Of a DNA stretch of 64,000 nucleotides, positions 1-42,612 are shown piece after piece. Where the stretch lies: contig CAVTDB010000016.1 in the NCBI GenBank assembly GCA_963733375.1, forward strand, positions 21,604-85,603, in the 5' to 3' direction. Both the position numbers and the translations under genes were made by a program. The stretch is from Nitrospirota bacterium. Its GTDB lineage: Bacteria > Nitrospirota > JACRHJ01. Each line of letters starts with the position of its first letter. Positions within the stretch are counted from its first letter, which is position 1. The notes under the pieces were generated by a model that saw only the letters and a program-made list of their open reading frames with translations, searched no databases and was not told the DNA's origin.

Positions 1-1
1 G

Positions 2-178
2 GAGGTAACCATACGCCGGGAAGGCGGGACATGGACAAGCTCCATGCCCCTGAAAATCCCTGAAAACGCAAGGCCCGGCAGGTACAGTGTGACGACGATA
101 GTGGAGACTGACAGCGCCGGGGATACCCGCGATTTCGCGTTCCAGGTGGAAGAGCCGCAGGGCCAGTGGAGGAGATGA
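2..178 (+). CDS. 3' end of hypothetical protein (beta-rich, Ig-like C-terminus), truncated by window edge
   Basis: Open frame EVTIRREGGTWTSSMPLKIPENARPGRYSVTTIVE...FQVEEPQGQWRR* with host-like codon use. Confidence 0.7.
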   Translation, partial: EVTIRREGGTWTSSMPLKIPENARPGRYSVTTIVETDSAGDTRDFAFQVEEPQGQWRR

Positions 179-630
179 ATACTTTACGAATAAATAATTC
201 TTTATTAATGCCTGCCCGGACGCGGAAACTCCGCGAGGAGGCGAAAAAGAACATATATTTTTCAATTACTTGCAAGTGTCGAAACTGGATTTTCATGCCG
301 CTGAAAAAAGGAAAATATGCGGTGTAACGATATGTTTAATAAAGATAAAACCTTAGTCCTCCCCTTTAAAAAACTATAGCTCGTAAACCCCTCTCTAACC
401 CCTCATAAACCGCCCTGAGTCGTAAAAACGGCTCAAATTGATACCCGGCGAGTAATCGTCGAATAAGTCATTTATATATGAAAAAGAGATTAATTAGCGG
501 CCAGTTCCGACGCGAAGCGGGAGGGGCTATTAAGAGCACGGGGGAAATTGGTCCCGCTGATTACGTTACAGGCCGCGGGCCAGAAAAATCGAGTCCGCAT
601 GGGCCGCGTATGGAAATTCCGGAAGCCTTC

Positions 631-802
631 CTAGGCAGGCAGAACTATCTTTGAGCAGTTGCAGCCGAAGTGCGCCGGCTCTTTGGGGAACCTGTCTGCC
701 GGGTAAACCCCCGGGCCGAGCCCGTAGAGGTCCCGTGCGCCCATCGGCCCGCACTTTGGGACAGCCTTTGCAACGTTCGCTGACCAGCCATTTCATGGAC
801 AT
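631..802 (-). CDS. Small Cys/His-rich protein resembling the C-terminal motif of phage MuF/minor capsid proteins (one indel at about 755-757)
   Basis: GGGAGG RBS before ATG at 802; removing one A gives MSMKWLVSERCKGCPKCGPMGARDLYGLGPGVYPADRFPKEPAHFGCNCSKIVLPA*. Confidence 0.65.
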
Positions 803-837
803 CGCGTCCTCCCATATAAAAGGTTCTTTATATTAAA

Positions 838-867
838 AGTATAACTGATAACATCCCGGCCTGGCAA
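838..867 (-). promoter_or_regulatory. Putative sigma70 promoter for the small Cys-rich gene
   Basis: Minus strand TTGCCA-N18-TATACT. Confidence 0.45.
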
Positions 868-961
868 GATGCCGATGGGAAAGATTACGAAGAAATCGTT
901 GTGATATAATTTTATAAGATACTAAAATTCAAGCAAAAAAGGTCTTAGCCGGAGGAAAGAC

Positions 962-2036
962 ATGCTGACTAAAATATTGATTGGAACACTGTTTCTTCTG
1001 CCTCTTATGGTTACGGGGGCCGATGCGGCAGGCGGCCCGCGCCTTGAGACGGCCATCTTCGCGGGCGGATGTTTCTGGTGCATGACGCCGCCTTTCGAGA
1101 AGACCCCCGGGGTCATCAAGGTTGTATCAGGATACACCGGCGGGCATACGAAGAACCCGACCTATGAGAATTACGCCGAAGGGGGTCACGTCGAGGTGGT
1201 CGAGATAACCTACGACCCGGCCAAAATAAGCTACTCAAAGCTTCTCGATGTCTTCTGGAGGCAGATAGACCCGACCGACGGCGGCGGCCAGTTCGTGGAC
1301 CGCGGGCCGCAGTACCGTTCGGCTATATTTTATCTGAACGACGAACAGAAGAAGCTTGCCGAGAAGTCCAAGGCGGAACTGGCGGCGTCGGGTAAGTTTA
1401 AAAAGCCCATCGTGACGGAGATAATAAAGGCCTCGGCATTTTATCCCGCGGAGGAGTACCACCAGGACTACTGGAAGAAAAACCCGGTACGGTACAAGTA
1501 TTACAGATGGAACTCAGGCCGCGACCAGTATCTGGAGAAGGTATGGGGAAAGGATGCGGCGATGCACACCAGTAACGCCGGGAGCGCGAAGGCTGAGGTC
1601 GCGTATGTTAAGCCGTCCAGGGAAGAGTTGAAAAAAAGGCTGACTCCCATGCAGTATGAGGTAACCCAGGAAAATGGCACTGAGCCAGCGTTTGGAAACG
1701 AATACTGGAACAATAAGAGGCCCGGCATTTACGTCGATATCGTATCCGGCGAGCCCCTGTTCAGTTCGCTGGACAAGTTCGATTCCGGCACCGGATGGCC
1801 GAGCTTCACGAAACCCCTTGAACCCGGCAACATCGTGGAGAAAAAGGAGGGCTTCTTAAGGACCAGCGACGGAGGTAAGGAGCAAACACGCGGACTCGCA
1901 TCTCGGCGATTTGTTCCATGACGGCCCCCCGCCAACGGGCCTGCGCTATTGCCTGGACTCGGCGGCGCTCAGGTTCATCCCGAAAGAGGACCTCGTAAAG
2001 GATGGGTACGGGAAGTATCTGAAGCTCTTCGAGTGA
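962..2036 (+). CDS. msrAB: Exported bifunctional methionine sulfoxide reductase MsrA/MsrB (frameshift about 1865)
   Basis: Signal peptide; Msr[15 protein letters not shown]; Msr[12 protein letters not shown]; shifted frame continues [13 protein letters not shown]...GLRYC...* at 2036. Confidence 0.92.
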
Positions 2037-2043
2037 AATAGGT

Positions 2044-2766
2044 ATGAGCGCACCTGAGAAAAAGGGGTTGATAATCAGGCTGGCCGCGGCGGCCATAGTC
2101 GTCGCCCTGCTTGTAGCGGGCTCGAAATACCTCCACTTCCGGGAACTGCTGACTGGCGCTCTTCAGTGGGTCTCCGGCCTGGGTATGTGGGGGCCGGTAA
2201 TATTCATAATCATTTATATCGCCGCCTGCATTCTGTTTTTCCCCGCCGCGATCCTGACACTTGGGGCGGGCGCCATCTTCGGCGTGGTCGAGGGCTCTGT
2301 CATAGTGTCCATATCGGCCACGCTTGGCGCGACTGCCGCGTTCCTTGTGGGGCGGTACCTGGCCCGGGACTGGGTTGCCAGGAAGATAGAGGGAAACCGG
2401 AAGTTTCAGTCGATAGACGAGGCGGTAGCCAGAGAGGGCTGGAAGATAGTCGGTCTGACGCGCCTGTCGCCCGTATTTCCGTTCGTCCTCCTTAACTATG
2501 CATACGGGCTTACGAAGGTATCTCTCCGGGACTATTTCTTCGCGTCATGGATAGGGATGATGCCCGCGACGGTCATGTATGTCTATATCGGCTCGCTCGC
2601 GGGAGACCTTGCAAAGCTCGGCGCCGGGGGACGCGCCAGGACGGCCGGTGAATGGATACTTTACGGCGTCGGGTTCCTCGCCACGGTTGCCGTGACCGTT
2701 TTCGTGACCCGTATCGCACGCAGGGCGCTTGCGGCATATTCGACGGGCGCCAAGCCTGCTCCGTGA
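2044..2766 (+). CDS. TVP38/TMEM64 (VTT/DedA-like) membrane protein
   Basis: Hydrophobic; GATAAFLVGRY, LTRLSPVFPF, NYAYGLT motifs. Confidence 0.9.
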   Translation: MSAPEKKGLIIRLAAAAIVVALLVAGSKYLHFRELLTGALQWVSGLGMWGPVIFIIIYIAACILFFPAAILTLGAGAIFGVVEGSVIVSISATLGATAAFLVGRYLARDWVARKIEGNRKFQSIDEAVAREGWKIVGLTRLSPVFPFVLLNYAYGLTKVSLRDYFFASWIGMMPATVMYVYIGSLAGDLAKLGAGGRARTAGEWILYGVGFLATVAVTVFVTRIARRALAAYSTGAKPAP

Positions 2767-2873
2767 GGCCGGCGGGGATTACAATTTCTCTCTTCCTGTT
2801 GCATTAATTTCCCTACAGTGCTATGATTTTGAACCGTCTTTTTTGAACTTGGCAACAGGAAAGAGAAATAAGA

Positions 2874-5219
2874 ATGACAATAAGAAAGATAAAGATAATA
2901 GTATTCGTAGTTATAGCCCTGATCGCCATTACCGGCGGGGCAAGCTATGCGGTGATAAATACCGTAAAACACGACCTGCCCCAGATAAGCTCGCTGAAGA
3001 ACTATAAATCCCCCATCGGCACGCAGGTGTTCTCCGAAGACGACCACCTGATTGGCCGGATAAAAGTTGACAGGGGGATATTCGTGCCGCTTTCGCAGAT
3101 GCCGGACAGCCTTAAGAGGGCCGTGGTGGCTATCGAGGACGCCCGGTTCTATGAGCACGGCGGTCTGGACTTCCAGGGCATCGCGCGCGCGATGGTGAAG
3201 GACGTCATCTCTTTAAGCTTCAAGGAGGGCGGGAGCACCATCACGCAGCAGCTCGCCAAGGTTTATTTCCTGACGCCGGAAAAGAGCGTCAGCCGAAAGC
3301 TCAAGGAGATGATGCTCGCCCGGAAAATCGAGAAGAGCCTGACGAAGGACGAGATACTGGAGCTGTATTTAAACAAGATATATTTCGGCCACGGCGCTTA
3401 CGGCGTCGAGATGGCGGCACGGACGTTTTTCGGAAAGCACGTAGGCGACCTGAGCCTTGCCGAATCCGCCATGATAGCGGGCCTTATCCGCTCCCCCCAG
3501 GGCTATTCGCCCTACAACGATATGGGAGTGGCGAAGAAACGCCAGGAGCTGGTGCTGACGAGGATGGCCGAGGAACGGCTTATCTCCCGCGGACAGGCGA
3601 GCGTGGCGATGGCCCAGCCGCTTGTCCTGAAGAACCTCCGGGCGAACGAGGAGGTCGCGCCGTACCTGGTCGAGCAGATAAGGATATATCTGGAGAAGAA
3701 ATACGGGGCCGACAAGGTTTATGTGGAAGGTCTGACCGTAAAGACAGCGATCGATTACCGCATGCAGGTCGCGGCAAACCGGGCCGTGGAGTCGGGAGTG
3801 CGGGACCTGGAAAAACGCGAGGGCTGGCGCGGGCCTGTCGCTAAGAAAGACCTGAACGAAGTCGAGAAGCTTCTGGAAACAAAGCAGGGGAAAGCAGCCT
3901 CCTTTCAGCCGGGCGAGGTCGTGGCGGCAACCGTGTTAAAGGTTGAGGACAAGGGCGCGGTGATATTTACGCGCAGCGGCAAAGGGTACCTTTCGTGGGC
4001 GGACATGAAATGGGCCGCCGGCAGAGACAAAAAAAAGAAGAAGCCTTCGGATATACTTCAGCCGGGTTACGTTATCGAGGTTAAACCCAAAGGGTTCGAT
4101 AAGACGAAGCGCCTCGCGTTTACGCTGGAACAGGAACCGGTCTGTCAGGCCGCGCTGGTCGCCATCGACCCCTGGGAGGGGAAGGTTAAGGCTTTGGTCG
4201 GCGGGGTGGATTTCCAGAGGAGCGAGTATAACCATGCCACGATGGCCCACAGGCAGCCGGGTTCGGCTTTCAAGCCGCTTGTCTATGCCGTCGCGATGGA
4301 AAACGGCTTTACCCCGGCGAGCATCATAAACGACGAGCCCCGCAGTTACGACAACGACACCTGGAAGCCCGCAAACTACGACAGGGAATATTACGGGCCT
4401 ACCCGTCTGCGCGACGCGCTGGTTTACTCCAGGAACGTCGTTACGATAGAGCTTCTCCATGAGGTCGGCGTACAGAAGGTCATCGACCTGGCGACAAAGC
4501 TCGGGATGACTGGGCCGTTCGCCCGGAACCTCACCCTCGCGTTGGGCTCCGGAAGCGTCACACCTCTTGAGCTGACCACGGCCTATTGCTCATTCGCCAA
4601 TGGCGGCTACGACATAAGCCCGGTTACTATCCTGCGTGTATCCGACAGAAACGGCCATGTGCTGGAGGAACACGAATCGACGCACGATCAGGTCCTGTCC
4701 TCCGAGACGACTTATCAGGTTACCAGCATGCTTCAAGATGCGGTGCAGCGCGGGACGGGCACGCTGGCTTCGTCGCTCGGCAGGCCGGTGGCCGGGAAGA
4801 CCGGGACGACCAACGATTACAAGGATGCATGGTTCGTCGGATACACCCCCAACCTCGTAGCCGGGGTATGGGTGGGCCATGACGACGACAAGGGCCTGGG
4901 GCACGGCGAATCGGGCGCAAGGGCCGCGCTTCCCATATGGGTCCGGTTCATGGCCCCGGCGGTGGCGGCATATCCGCCTGATAACTTCACCATCCCGGAC
5001 GGCATCGATTTCGTGGAGATAGACGCCGCCACGGGGCTTTTACCTACCGGCGCCAGCGAGAAGGTGATAAGCGAGGTATTCAAAAAAGGTACGGCTCCCA
5101 CGCAGTACGTTTCCGCAATGCCCGAGGCGCAGCCGGTATCCTCTTCGCCGCCCCCTACTCCCACGAAGGCGGTCATAGACCAGGAAAAGCAGATGAAGCT
5201 CCTGCAGGACGTGGATTAA
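2874..5219 (+). CDS. mrcA: Penicillin-binding protein 1A
   Basis: TM anchor, EDARFYEHGG, GGSTITQQL, RKLKE; transpeptidase SAFK, SRN, KTG motifs. Confidence 0.95.
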   Translation: MTIRKIKIIVFVVIALIAITGGASYAVINTVKHDLPQISSLKNYKSPIGTQVFSEDDHLIGRIKVDRGIFVPLSQMPDSLKRAVVAIEDARFYEHGGLDFQGIARAMVKDVISLSFKEGGSTITQQLAKVYFLTPEKSVSRKLKEMMLARKIEKSLTKDEILELYLNKIYFGHGAYGVEMAARTFFGKHVGDLSLAESAMIAGLIRSPQGYSPYNDMGVAKKRQELVLTRMAEERLISRGQASVAMAQPLVLKNLRANEEVAPYLVEQIRIYLEKKYGADKVYVEGLTVKTAIDYRMQVAANRAVESGVRDLEKREGWRGPVAKKDLNEVEKLLETKQGKAASFQPGEVVAATVLKVEDKGAVIFTRSGKGYLSWADMKWAAGRDKKKKKPSDILQPGYVIEVKPKGFDKTKRLAFTLEQEPVCQAALVAIDPWEGKVKALVGGVDFQRSEYNHATMAHRQPGSAFKPLVYAVAMENGFTPASIINDEPRSYDNDTWKPANYDREYYGPTRLRDALVYSRNVVTIELLHEVGVQKVIDLATKLGMTGPFARNLTLALGSGSVTPLELTTAYCSFANGGYDISPVTILRVSDRNGHVLEEHESTHDQVLSSETTYQVTSMLQDAVQRGTGTLASSLGRPVAGKTGTTNDYKDAWFVGYTPNLVAGVWVGHDDDKGLGHGESGARAALPIWVRFMAPAVAAYPPDNFTIPDGIDFVEIDAATGLLPTGASEKVISEVFKKGTAPTQYVSAMPEAQPVSSSPPPTPTKAVIDQEKQMKLLQDVD

Positions 5220-8820: not shown

Positions 8821-9736
8821 ATGTCTGCGACAATTATTGACGGGAACAAGATCGGCGAGGAGATAAAGCTTGAGATAATCAAGGAAGTCGAAGCCCTGAA
8901 GGCAAAGGGTATCGTGCCGGGTATCGCGACGCTTTTAGTGGGAGACAACTACGGCGCGAAGATGTACCGGGGCCAGGTCGAGAAGAACTGCGCCGAGGTG
9001 GGCTTCAATTACATAAACGCGAACCCCGCCGAGACAGCCTCGGAGGCGGAGGTCGTCGAAGCGGTAAAAAAGCTCAACGCGGATAAATCCGTGTCCGGCA
9101 TCCTTCCGCTCCGGCCTTTCCCGGCGCAGATAAGCGACTCATCCATCATCAACTCCATCGACGTAAATAAAGACATCGACTGCTTCCATCCGTCCAACAT
9201 GGGCAAGCTGGTCCTGGGCGAGCCTACCTTCCCGCCCGCGACTCCGTCTGCCTGCATCGAGATGCTGGACAGGCTTGGCGTCGATTTTACCGGCGCGGAG
9301 ATAGTCGTGGTGGGGCATTGCAAACATCGTCGGCAAGCCCGTGATGCTCATCGCGCTGAACCGTAACGCCACCACGTCCAACGTCCATATCTTCACCTCC
9401 CAGAAAGGCAACACGAAAAAGCACACGCTGGGCGCGGACATACTTATCGTCGCCGCGGGCAAGGCGGGCCTTGTAACGAAAGACATGGTGAAGCCCGGCG
9501 CGATAGTGATAGACGTGGGCATAAACCGAGTTAACGTGCTGGACGCCGAGGGCAAGCCGGTATTAAACGACAAGGGCAAGCCGAAGACGAAGACGGTCGG
9601 CGACGTGGACTTCGAGAACGTGAAAGAGGTGGCATCCGCCATCTCCCCCGTCCCCGGCGGCGTCGGCTCTGTCACGAACATGATGCTTATGAAGAACGCG
9701 CTCCGCGCCTGCAAGATACAGCACGGGATAGCGTAA
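8821..9736 (+). CDS. folD: Methylene-THF dehydrogenase FolD (frameshift about 9320)
   Basis: IIDG, KDID, PATP, IVGKP, DVGINR, GDVDF, PVPGGVG. Confidence 0.92.
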
Positions 9737-28157: not shown

Positions 28158-30670
28158 ATGCTTGAAAATGACTTACATCTGAACGAGCTGAAAGATTTTT
28201 TTTTCGCTATAATGGAGCTCGTAAAGAACACGTTTATAATCAGGCTCGGTGCCTATCCCGGCCTTAAAGAGCTGATCATCGCCATCCCCGCCTGGGCTTA
28301 TCTGTTTATCATACTATTCGCCATCTGGCTTATCTACATTACCCTGAAGTTCATAGGTGTCAGGGCCTACGGTTTTGCAATGAACACGCTCCACGGGTCC
28401 TCCCTCGGCACTACCATGGAGAATCGGAAGCTGTTATCGGAGGCCAGGAAACTGGCCAGGAAGAAGCAGCACGGGCGCGCGGCGGATTTATACTTGACCC
28501 TTCATGAAGACGGCAAGGCCGCGAAGGTGCTGGAGAAAGGCGGGCTTCTCGCGAAGGCGGGGCAGATGTACGAGAAGATGGGCCAGACGGATAAGGCGAT
28601 AGCCCTCTACGAGAAGGCCGGAGAGCATTCCTGGCATGCCGACGCCCTGCTGAAGCAGGGGAAATATGCCGAGGCCGCCGAGATACTGCGCAAGGCCGGT
28701 AAACCGATGCTGGCGGCGGAGGCCTATGAGAAGGCGGAGATGCATACGGAGGCGGCGCGGCTTTTTGAAGAGTCCGGCCATACGGTAGCCGCCGCAATGC
28801 ATTTCGAGAAGGCGGGAAATCTGGAAAAGGCCGCCGTCTATTACGACCGCGCGTTCGTCGAGACGACCTCTTCCAAGGAAATGAACATAGCGAATATCGA
28901 GAAGTACAACGAGTACTCGATAAAGGCCGGCAAATATTACCGCGAGACAGGCGATAATATGAAGGCCCTCGAATGTTACGCCCGCGTAAAGGCGTACCCG
29001 GAAGCCGCCGAGTGCGCGCTTCAGGCGGGCGACAAGATGAAGGCCGCCGAGCTTTTCGAGTCCGGGAAGCTGTACGAGCAGGCGGCGGAAATATTCGGGG
29101 AGCTTGGAAACGCGCGCCGCGCCGCCGAACTTATGGCCGATAAATATTTCGCTGACGGCAATTACGTGAAGGCCGCGGACATGCTGGCTGAGTCGAGCGA
29201 TTTCATAAAGGCGGCGGAACTCTATCACGGCGCCGGAGAGTACGGCAAAGCCGGAGAGTGCTACATGCAAAGCCGCGAGTATTACGACGCGGCGGGGATG
29301 TTCGAGAAGGCGGGAGACGATTTACGGGCCGCCGTCGCATACGATAAGAACGGGGATTTCAAAATCTCCGCTGAATTGTATCTGAAGCTTGGAAACGTCG
29401 ACAAGGCCGCTTCGCTGGTAGAGGCGGCGGGAGAGTATTTCTCCGCGGCGGAGATGTTCAGAAAGGCCGGATCTGCCTGCCAAGGAGTTCTCCGCGCTCC
29501 AGAAGGTGCGCCAGGGCGACCCCGGCTACCTGAACGCCTGCGGCAGGATGGCGGACATATTGCGTGAGCAGGGAAAGCTGGACGTCGCGGCGCAGAAATA
29601 TATAATAGCGATCGGCGATTCCGAGCCGGACGAGGAAAATATCGGTTATTTCTACGGCCTGGGCACCATATACGAATCAGACGGGAAATTTAAAGAAGCC
29701 GTCCAGATGTACAAGAAGATACAGCTGGTGGATATCGCATACAAAGACGTTGAAGAGCGCGTAACCAAGTGCGAAGGTCAAATCTCCGCACCCGGCTCCA
29801 GGGCCGGTATCCGGCGCCGGGAAATTCGGCGGGCCAGCCTGATTCAAGCGCCGCCGCCGTCAGCACGTCCGATCAGTCCAAGAGATATACGATACTTCAG
29901 GAGATAGGCCGGGGCGGGATGGGCGTGGTTTACAAGGCGATGGACAATAACTTAAACCGCATCATCGCCATAAAACTCCTGCCGAAAAGTATCAGCGACA
30001 ACCCTAAAGCGATAATGCGGTTTTCGCAGGAGGCGCGTTCCGCGGCACAGCTAAATAACAGCAACATCGTAACTCTCTACGACTTCCAGCAGGCGGGCGG
30101 CAGGAGCTTCATTACGATGGAGTACGTCGAGGGCGTCACTCTGAGGAAGCTCCAGTCGATGGTGGACCGTGTGGCCATGGCCAAGGCGCTGAAGATTATC
30201 TACCAGTGCTGCCAGGGGCTCGATTACGCCCACAGAAAAGGTATTATCCACCGGGACATCAAGCCCAGCAACATAATGATAACCAAGCAGAACGTGGTCA
30301 AGATAATGGATTTCGGGCTGGCCAAGAGTCGCCGGAGAAGAGACCTTGACGGACGCCGGGTCCATAAGCGGCACGATAATGTACATGTCGCCCGAACAGA
30401 TACAGGGCGGCAAACTCGGCCGCACGACGGACATATACTCGCTGGGGCTGGTCCTGTACGAGCTGATTGCAGGGAAGCGCCCGTTCCCGGAAGGCGACGC
30501 GGGGTACCACCACGTCCACACGGCGCCGGCGCCGCCGGCCCGAGCTCAGGCCGGAAATTCCCGCCAGCCTGAACCAGGTAATCATGAAATGCCTTGAGAA
30601 GGACCCGTCCAAAAGGTTCGAAAGCGCGTACGCCCTGGCGATGGCGCTCCGTGAAATACCGCTGAAATAA
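28158..30670 (+). CDS. Membrane-anchored helical-repeat protein with C-terminal Hanks Ser/Thr kinase (about four frameshifts)
   Basis: TM, many AAxxYEKAG-type repeats, IGRGGMGVVY, HRDIKPSN, DFGLAK, YMSPEQ; joining the fragments is inferred. Confidence 0.8.
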
Positions 30671-40840: not shown

Positions 40841-42612
40841 CTACGTTACCACATCCAGCTTTATATGCAGTTCCCGGAGCTGCGCCTTGTCCACATCGGA
40901 CGGCGCGTCGGTCATGAGGTCGGTCGCCTTCTGGGTCTTCGGGAACGCGATGACGTCTCTTATGGAGTCCGCGCCGGTGAGTATCATAGAGAGCCTGTCC
41001 AGGCCGAACGCGATGCCGCCGTGCGGCGGCGCGCCGAACTCCAGCGCCTCCAGCAGGAACCCGAACCGCTCCTTCGCTCGTTCCTCGTCAATCCCCAGCG
41101 CCTTGAACATCAGGGACTGCACCTCCGAGCGGTGGATACGGATGCTCCCGCCGCCGACTTCACTGCCGTTTAACACGATGTCGTACGCGAGCGCCCGGAC
41201 CTTCTCCGGCTCCGTGAGCAGAAACGGCACGTCCTCTTCCATCGGCGCCGTGAACGGGTGGTGCATCGCCTCCCAGCGGCTTTCGTCGGAGTTCCACTCG
41301 AACTGCGGGAAGTCCGTCACCCAGAGGAAATTGAACTTCGTGTCGTCTATCAGGCCAAGCCTTCTTGCTATTTCCAGCCGGAGCCTGCCCAGCACGTCGT
41401 CGGCGACTTTCTTTTTGTCGGCGACGAACACCAGCAGGTCCCCTTCTTCCGCATCAAGGGCTTTTCGATATTTCCGCAAGCGTCGCCTCGTCGAAGAACT
41501 TCTTTATCGGAGACTCTATCCCCTGCGCCGTAACCTTCATCCAGGCCATCCCCTTCGCGCCGAAGGATATCGCGGTATTCGTCAGGTCCTCGATCTCTTT
41601 CCGAGACATCCCCGCGAGACCCTTGGCATTCAGGCCCTTTACCACGCCGCCTGACGCCAGGGCGCCTTTCATTACCTGGAACTCCGTAGCATTCACGATT
41701 TCGGAGAGGTCCTTAAGCTCCAGCCCGAACCGCGTATCCGGCTTGTCCGAGCCGTATCTCTCCATCGCGTCCGCATAACTCATCCTGGGGAACGGGACCG
41801 GCAGTTCGACGCCTTTTATCTCGCGGAATATCTCCCCCATCATCCGCTTCGATGAGCGAATATATATCCTCTTCATTGATGAAAGACATCTCCATGTCTA
41901 TCTGGGTGAACTCCGGCTGGCGGTCGGCCCGCAGGTCCTCGTCGCGGAAGCATTTCACTATCTGGTAATATTTCTCGAAGCCGGACACCATAAGTATCTG
42001 CTTGAAGAGCTGGGGCGACTGGGGCAGGGCGTAGAACTTCCCGACGTTCACCCGCGACGGGACCAGATAGTCCCGCGCGCCTTCCGGGGTGCTCTTGGTG
42101 AGCATCGGGGTCTCGACATCTATAAATGCCTCGTTATCCAGAAAACGCCGGACAGTCGCGCATATCCTGTGGCGCGTCATGAGCGCCTTCTGGAGCGGCC
42201 TGCGCCGGAGGTCCAGGTAGCGGTACTTGAGCTTGAGCGCCTCGGAGGCGTCGGTATCGTCGGTCAGAGGGAACGGGGGAGTCTTTGACGTATTTAATAT
42301 CTCAATTTGATTTATATATACTTCAATTTCGCCCGTCGGGCGGTCCGGGTTCGCGGTACCTTCCGGACGCATGAATACTTTACCTTTTACGGCAACGACA
42401 TATTCCGACCTGACTGCGTCAGCGATTGAAAGCGCGGCTTGATTGGTATCCATGCTGAAAACGATTTGAGTTATCCCCGCCCTGTCCCGGAGGTCTATGA
42501 ATATAAGCCCGCCGTGGTCGCGCCGGGTCTCCACCCAGCCCGCGAGGACCACCTCTTTTCCTTTGTCCTACGCCCTAAGGCTTCCGCAGTCGTGAGTCCG
42601 CTTGAGTTTCAA
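40841..42612 (-). CDS. aspS: Aspartate-tRNA ligase (two frameshifts and one in-frame TAG)
   Basis: [41 protein letters not shown]; GGAG RBS before TTG at 42612. Confidence 0.95.

Follow-up and report, generated by a model that had tools for sequence, protein, structure and literature searches.

A conserved small gene in a Nitrospirota lineage whose 56-residue product probably derives from the C-terminal end of phage MuF proteins

Does a broken reading frame on a Nitrospirota contig conceal a small gene of phage ancestry that the cell has kept, and what might its product do? We addressed this question for a locus near the start of a 64,000-nt stretch of DNA (the whole of which is called the window below). 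There the original prediction had proposed that taking one A from the run at positions 755-757 restores a 56-aa protein resembling the C-terminal part of phage head morphogenesis proteins of the MuF/SPP1 gp7 type, preceded by its own promoter and ribosome-binding site (RBS). The features concerned are as follows.

631..802, minus strand: mini-protein gene (mini-gene), 56 codons plus stop after discounting one extra base; assembled as a 78-aa and a 37-aa frame
755..757, minus strand: A-run with the extra base; AAA in the window, AA in the allele of the related genome G001 and of the orthologous loci L027 and L028
808..813, minus strand: Shine-Dalgarno-like GGGAGG, five bases 5′ of the ATG at 802-800
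838..867, minus strand: sigma-70-like promoter candidate, with TTGCCA at 867-862, an 18-nt spacer and TATACT at 843-838
962..2036, plus strand: msrAB (PMSR + SelR), the divergent neighbour, outside the mini-gene unit; one extra base near 1866

With translation table 11, the minus strand contains a 78-aa ORF (566..802) and a 37-aa ORF (631..744) in different frames. The two frames of the mini-gene join at CCCAAAG, the plus-strand TTT at 755-757 being AAA on the coding strand. Reading through one base on, with the four-letter step TGTC read as one C, produced a 56-aa product (MSMKW...CNCSKIVLPA) that was exactly the sequence predicted, and an identical product is encoded intact in a second related genome, G002 (locus L001, 1501..1671). 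At the break the window reads TGTCCCAAAG, whereas the same site reads TGTCCCAAG in G001, L027 and L028 and TGCCCAAAG in G002; since the first three share one reading, removal of one A returns the window to the commonest allele. A Logan contig of sequencing run X1 was also one base short at 755, this contig coming from a relative and not from the source sample. The sequencing runs compared were Logan contigs of relatives (4 runs), with at most 21% of the sampled words found in the best run, and the runs sharing parts of the locus were peat, soil and wetland metagenomes, with small shares. Programmed frameshifting was ruled out because each orthologue is encoded in a single frame. The predicted 56-aa product is a basic protein of 6.1 kDa with a pI of 9.0 and a net charge of +3.5.

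We then compared the window with G002 to place the extra base within the state of the assembly. The genome containing the window (G000) amounts to 2.39 Mb in 26 contigs and is 81% complete, and the window differs by 240 indels from the syntenic 58 kb of G002. The frameshift census took in 59 isolated indels, namely those with lengths not divisible by three. A long ORF was broken in the window at 12 of these and in G002 at 8, while both ORFs stayed long at 27 and both were short at the remaining 12. With G002 as the reference, the window has at least 12 isolated frameshifting indels that disrupt long ORFs within 58 kb. The neighbouring msrAB is broken near 1866, where the window has ACCAGCGACGG and G002 has ACCACGACGG; MsrAB is intact in G002 (357 aa, with a signal-peptide-like start), and G001 has only the MsrB half at the same place. 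In addition, folD is cut short in the window (8821-9366, near 9324), ORFs of 759 and 590 aa in G002 are split at window positions 28417-30539 and 41460-41847, and the essential valS of the window's genome (contig C6, 62288-64764) is spread over three frames. Because indels also break msrAB, folD and valS, the frameshift in the mini-gene most likely arose, judging from the state of the assembly, when a short A-run was misread or misassembled, as one of many such errors. The gene had been called hidden in the original prediction, a word that describes the assembly and not the biology. The breaks in the window, together with the at least 8 in G002, mean that both metagenome-assembled genomes need polishing before their gene calls are trusted.

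Intact orthologues that stand alone were searched for and found. In the public protein collection, the exact 56-aa sequence represents a 90% cluster with 16 members; among the 15 cluster members listed, 14 are 54-56 aa long. A 378-aa low-complexity member of this cluster (P0009) was regarded as a clustering artefact and excluded from all alignments. The collection also contains a 57-aa relative with 86% identity, and the further intact orthologues number at least 14 (54-57 aa); the window's own copy is represented in the public protein set only by the broken 78-aa product. G001 encodes an intact product that is 98% identical. The gene was present in all three genomes of the genus (broken in the window's copy), with no other convincing match among the 401 Nitrospirota genomes searched. 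One more Nitrospirota match (E 5.7e-4, with an internal stop) was discounted as weak.

The pN/pS ratio was 0.03-0.27 over 15 pairwise comparisons, with pS up to 0.53, indicating that the mini-gene is under strong purifying selection. Between G001 and G002, pS and pN were 0.234 and 0.008 for the mini-gene and 0.217 and 0.008 for the first 330 codons of valS. Protein identity between the same two genomes was 98% for the mini-protein versus 89.5% for DedA, 86% for MsrB and 86% for the lipoprotein. By these sequence comparisons, the mini-gene is a genuine, conserved, stand-alone and lineage-specific small gene.

The RBS and promoter boxes named in the original prediction were located at 813-808 and 867..838, respectively, and they are conserved in orthologous loci. 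The promoter candidate TTGCCA-18-TATACT matches 10 of 12 consensus positions, and a scan of window positions 300-1100 returned 3 promoter-like sites against 0.9 expected from shuffles. Across the six aligned orthologous loci, GGGAGG is identical in all, TTGC of the −35 box is kept in all, and the −10 box, as TATA(C/A)T at the same spacing, is kept in five, including L027/L028. The DNA farther upstream in L027/L028 is unrelated, yet the promoter-like boxes and the RBS are retained; more generally, the non-coding flanks diverge fast, whereas the RBS and both promoter-like boxes are conserved. This pattern suggests that the mini-gene has its own predicted expression signals, which are retained when the genomic context changes. 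No terminator-like site was detected at window positions 300-1100, and Rfam gave no match at E≤1 on window positions 1-3000. Separately, a segment of ~130 nt downstream of the gene (window about 430-560) is well conserved in G001 and G002 and appears non-coding by eye, with neither an Rfam match nor a terminator-like site.

The proposed likeness to the MuF C-terminal part was borne out by a PHROGs profile and by profile-profile alignment, and not by the Pfam definition of the family. Pfam, PF04233 included, gave no match at E≤10 for the 78-aa ORF, a 41-aa piece or the 56-aa read-through, and NCBIfam gave none for the pieces or the read-through. The gathering score of PF04233 is 29.6 bits, and the controls that passed it were SPP1 gp7 (114 bits), Mu gp30 (111 bits) and LfeSau gp05 (32.2 bits). 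The profile phrog_1657, annotated as head morphogenesis, matched the 56-aa read-through at E 1.2e-6 (29.1 bits), with residues 3-51 aligned to positions 247-295 of 337, so that the mini-protein covers just ~15% of the profile. The 41-aa piece alone reached E 2.9e-4, and the read-through therefore adds signal. Other stand-alone forms matched over the same stretch, at E 6.3e-7 (P0019), 1.1e-8 (P0021) and 6.2e-5 (the ORF of locus L030).

A profile built from 15 orthologues was searched against 1.84 billion protein representatives and returned 172 matches at E≤1e-3. The top matches were three short stand-alone forms (57, 64 and 54 aa), and nearly all the others were proteins of 250-700 aa aligned near residues 250-310. 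Aligning the mini family with 43 phage-type relatives by hhalign gave a probability of 99.4% and E 2.4e-21 over 49 ungapped columns (template 247-295), in which identity to the phage consensus is 49%, including DLYGLGPGVYP.D.FP..PAH. A 304-aa relative at locus L031 (phrog_1657 E 1.4e-44) is encoded between a portal gene and genes for a scaffold and a major capsid protein. Marinitoga phage MPV1 and Lactobacillus phage LfeSau carry annotated terminase, portal, head morphogenesis, scaffold and major head genes, and their head morphogenesis proteins are 39-42% identical to the mini-protein. By tblastn, the mini-protein is 42% identical to LfeSau gp05, at a place inside the PF04233 match of that protein. 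Among ESM Atlas clusters, the nearest ones are viral, and 15-20% of their members carry PF04233. On these alignments, we regard homology of the mini-protein to the C-terminal Cys/His part of MuF/SPP1-gp7-type head morphogenesis proteins as established, and the portion that aligns is only the last ~50 residues of the MuF domain.

Other proteins that surfaced in these searches differ in architecture. P0022, P0029 and P0031 are other short architectures of the MuF end module: one (185 aa) has N-terminal CxxC zinc-ribbon-like repeats, and two (137 and 205 aa) have a C-terminal hydrophobic, membrane-anchor-like tail. P0020, a 727-aa sequence of ten ~70-residue repeats, matched the profile through GxGxGIYPxxKVP and was set aside as a likely translated DNA repeat with no bearing on the mini-gene. 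An 847-aa frame from a different genus of the family (genome G011, contig C194, 16309-16623, locus L023) showed a weak match to phrog_1657 (E 3.7e-4, positions 159-296) and may be a full-length MuF-type or polyvalent protein.

An AlphaFold2 model of the 56 residues, made with a 27-row alignment, had a pLDDT of 93.5 and a pTM of 0.75, with a strand at 2-6, a helix at 17-22, a short strand at 32-34 and a strand at 50-54. In a model of the full-length L031 protein, residues 240-300 form the same beta-alpha-beta-beta unit (pLDDT 90-98) behind a helix of 40 residues; the N-terminal part, which is helical, is modelled with less confidence. The MuF end module is accordingly predicted by modelling to fold on its own as 56 residues. 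Fold matches in BFVD were almost all MuF-like minor capsid proteins; the top 7 had TMq 0.74-0.87 and probability 0.96-1.0, and the best had TMq 0.87 at an rmsd of 1.3 Å. The Foldseek E-values were weak (0.07-0.3), as the model has only 56 residues, and these matches are not independent of the sequence evidence because the AlphaFold2 alignment held MuF fragments. Foldseek against the PDB gave no match at E≤0.001 for either the mini-protein model or the full-length phage relative. In VIA-align, the highest Z among 48,161 chains was 2.6, a value shared with unrelated folds. When the PDB was searched by sequence with the family profile, the best E was 3.9, a noise-level match to the ferredoxin-like chain of a 2-oxoglutarate oxidoreductase. 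No solved structure resembling either model emerged, which is no proof that the fold is new.

All 27 aligned sequences, drawn from the mini family and from phage fragments, carry C17, G29, G31, P34, P39, H44, C47 and C49 without exception. At position 11 the mini family has Cys where most phage relatives have His, and C14 is particular to the mini family. Judging by conservation alone, C17, H44, C47 and C49 together with C11 are predicted to hold one structural metal, probably zinc. As for an iron-sulfur site, only CxxCxxC of the 4Fe-4S ferredoxin motif CxxCxxCxxxCP is present, with no Cys-Pro at +3/+4, and VIA-align of the model with the M. tuberculosis ferredoxin 8amp_A gave a Z of 2.4, tied with unrelated folds.

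We next examined the surroundings of the gene, for which the original prediction had noted an absence of phage context. Its neighbours encode a Gly-zipper lipoprotein, MsrAB, a VTT/DedA protein, PBP1A, an ABC transporter and HlyD, and ~20 kb on each side contained transporter, lipoprotein, MsrAB, DedA, PBP1A and folate genes but no phage-like gene. A profile of 371 positions, built from full-length relatives and run against G000, G001 and G002 at E≤1, matched solely at the mini-gene, at profile positions ~256-312. In these three genomes it thus revealed neither another MuF-like segment nor a decayed full-length MuF gene upstream, the finding that would have marked the locus as a prophage scar; only about 10 codons are open upstream of the start. 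The profile phrog_1657 found the mini-gene in G001 and G002 and had no match in G000, where the gene is broken. Among 80 viral-contig loci from 303 relatives, none had a match in an open frame under 150 aa, and every stand-alone form retrieved came from a contig that was either non-viral or too short for classification.

The gene occupies more than one chromosomal site. In the window, G001, G002 and locus L029, its immediate, divergently oriented neighbour is msrAB or msrB. At L027 and L028, where the protein is 93% identical, it lies between tRNA-Ala(cgc) and valS, and the stand-alone form at L030 (58% identical) is flanked by an FtsZ/tubulin-like gene and valS. The gap between tRNA-Ala and valS in G001 and G002, ~100 nt long, is empty. 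The coordinates of the unit or site are 3152-3630 in L028, 821-1191 in L027, 4998-5454 in L030 and 1845-2023 in L144. ValS of L030 is 73-77% identical to that of the window's family, and ValS of L028 is 83% identical to that of G001/G002 over the first 330 residues. The two site types are alike from ~10 nt before the −35 box to ~20 nt past the stop, and on this alignment the ~0.3 kb promoter-RBS-gene unit has changed its chromosomal place. Only short, weak pairs of repeats were found flanking the cassette. Since the unit is found at two sites, its function cannot hinge on the msrAB neighbourhood, and the functional tie to msrAB put forward in the original prediction is not supported. Between L028 and G002, the mini-gene had a pS of 0.40 and a pN of 0.03, against 0.675 and 0.118 for valS; this lower divergence may reflect either transfer of the cassette or tight constraint on few sites. 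At L030, a 465-aa protein (3446-4843, minus strand) is encoded beside mraZ-rsmH and has a HEAT-like tail; its N-terminus, with GQCGGN, we take to be tubulin/FtsZ-like.

Several other accounts of the gene have to be weighed against this evidence. Cys/His patterns recur by chance in short proteins and PF04233 gives no match, which would suit a convergent origin in which an unrelated small zinc-ribbon-like protein happens to carry a C...HxxCxC pattern. The likeness, however, extends beyond the ligands through the 49 ungapped columns, the profile search yielded phage-type proteins almost exclusively and the fold search yielded MuF-like minor capsid proteins, so that we consider convergence extremely improbable. 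We also think it very improbable that the gene is a functionless 3′ remnant of a decayed full-length MuF gene. For such a scar speak the adjacency of the L027/L028 gene to a tRNA gene, a common integration site, and a statement in the text of Jamet et al. 2017 (PMC5576092) that 96% of chromosomal muf genes are in prophages or prophage remnants. Yet the full-length profile finds only the end portion and only at the mini-gene, hardly any open sequence precedes the start, and the neighbours within ~20 kb are housekeeping genes. The low pN/pS, the conserved start codon, RBS and promoter-like boxes, and the persistence of the gene at two chromosomal sites likewise contradict a remnant.

A redox or metal sensor, or a partner of the divergent MsrAB that uses CxxCxxC as a thiol switch or iron-sulfur ligand, has in its favour the msr neighbourhood in four loci, the CxxCxxC run created by C11 and C14, which most phage relatives lack, and the ferredoxin-like echoes (E 3.9 and Z 2.4). 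These echoes are at noise level, however; the L027/L028 and L030 genes lie by valS with no msr gene in the DNA examined, and MsrAB has a signal-peptide-like N-terminus whereas the mini-protein by eye has none. We accordingly rate this role as improbable. The remaining account concerns the frameshift itself, which would be genuine if the mini-gene had recently become a pseudogene in the source strain while staying intact in relatives. The extra base is indeed present in the assembled sequence, but it sits within a short homopolymer, the two gene halves together show 4 synonymous and 0 non-synonymous differences from G002, and the breaks in msrAB, folD, valS and at least 12 long ORFs within 58 kb point to a general indel problem. 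A real frameshift is therefore unlikely in our estimation.

The explanation that we prefer begins with the 3′ end of a phage MuF-type gene, which would have been captured by an ancestor within one Nitrospirota family. The captured piece would then have acquired a promoter and an RBS of its own, and selection would have maintained it as a unit of ~0.3 kb; a structural metal held by C17, H44, C47 and C49 with C11 may allow the 56 residues to fold alone. Leaving the metal and the mechanism aside, we judge it quite probable that a real, selected mini-gene, its capture from a phage MuF 3′ end and the frameshift as an error hold jointly.

The function can be narrowed only tentatively. The mini-protein has no equivalent of R221, T222 and E223 in the phage alignment, nor of the helix at 197-238; lacking the N-terminal half and its R-T-E helix, it would be restricted to binding something. 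The title of a 2003 paper by Stiege and co-workers reportedly names gp7 a DNA-binding protein. A passage in PMC6316719 describes SPP1 gp7 as binding the portal strongly, entering the procapsid in few copies and supporting the start of infection, and the function of the MuF domain is otherwise called unknown in the text of PMC5576092. The mini-protein may thus bind the ligand of the MuF end module, either the portal and procapsid interior or DNA, and so interfere with MuF-bearing phages. Interference of this kind is our preferred guess, a possible one that we hold loosely, and a cellular nucleic-acid- or protein-binding role is about as likely. A more specific proposal seems rather doubtful to us, namely that the portal- or DNA-binding knuckle of phage MuF is kept as a constitutive 6 kDa protein that competes with the MuF of incoming phages for its binding site, for instance by blocking MuF loading into procapsids or ejection, which would make it a minimal structural-mimic defence on a mobile unit of ~0.3 kb. 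Typical defence genes evolve fast, and against the anti-phage decoy suggested in the original prediction stands the vertical stability of the gene in the genus, where it is conserved like valS. GLGPGVYP, moreover, is near-invariant across phages with widely differing portals. A portal would account for such valS-like evolution and the near-invariant motif no better than a cellular partner or an invariant ligand made up of metal plus nucleic acid. A complex prediction that paired the L031 portal with residues 236-304 of the L031 MuF protein scored 0.01 against a mark of 0.32; made with a portal monomer and a 6-row alignment, it speaks neither for nor against binding.

The MuF family is already known, and a chromosomal, selected end piece of 56 residues with its own promoter-like signals would be a new form of it. 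Our literature search, which included the main text of PMC5576092, found no paper that describes a stand-alone MuF end piece on a chromosome or a metal site in MuF, and the words cysteine, zinc and histidine have 0 occurrences in the text of PMC5576092. The same text states that a third or more of tailed phages carry the MuF domain. The finding isolates the most conserved stretch of MuF as a self-standing, confidently modelled unit kept by a cell, and it provides a small, tractable protein for asking whether this stretch binds metal, DNA or the portal. It is also a clean example of a fragment of a phage structural protein turned host gene, and it illustrates how frameshift-laden assemblies hide conserved small genes. 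If phage interference is true, the gene represents a very small new kind of defence; if a cellular role is true, it shows new small proteins arising from phage parts.

Compared with known systems, the mini-protein differs from phage MuF proteins in size (56 aa versus 250-700 aa) and in lacking both their helical N-terminal part and their conserved R-T-E helix. Phage MuF genes adjoin a portal gene, whereas the mini-gene lies outside any phage or prophage and has no portal neighbour. Several larger relatives bear toxin-type domains (Ntox50, DUF6883 or an M90-like peptidase) after the MuF part, and they therefore belong to the MuF polymorphic toxin family described in the text of PMC5576092. Unlike these toxins, the mini-protein ends 7 residues after CxC with no extension or toxin domain, and its gene is not followed by a conserved small immunity-like gene. 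Where the mini-protein has CxxCxxC, most phage relatives have H....C. With canonical SPP1 gp7 and Mu gp30, it clearly has in common only the terminal P.H...CxC part. Its closest counterpart within PF04233 (MuF / SPP1 gp7 / Mu gp30) is the subfamily PHROG 1657, with which it shares the beta-alpha-beta-beta unit of the last ~50 residues and the motif W.[LV]S....C....DLYGLGPGVYP.D.FP..P.H..C.C.
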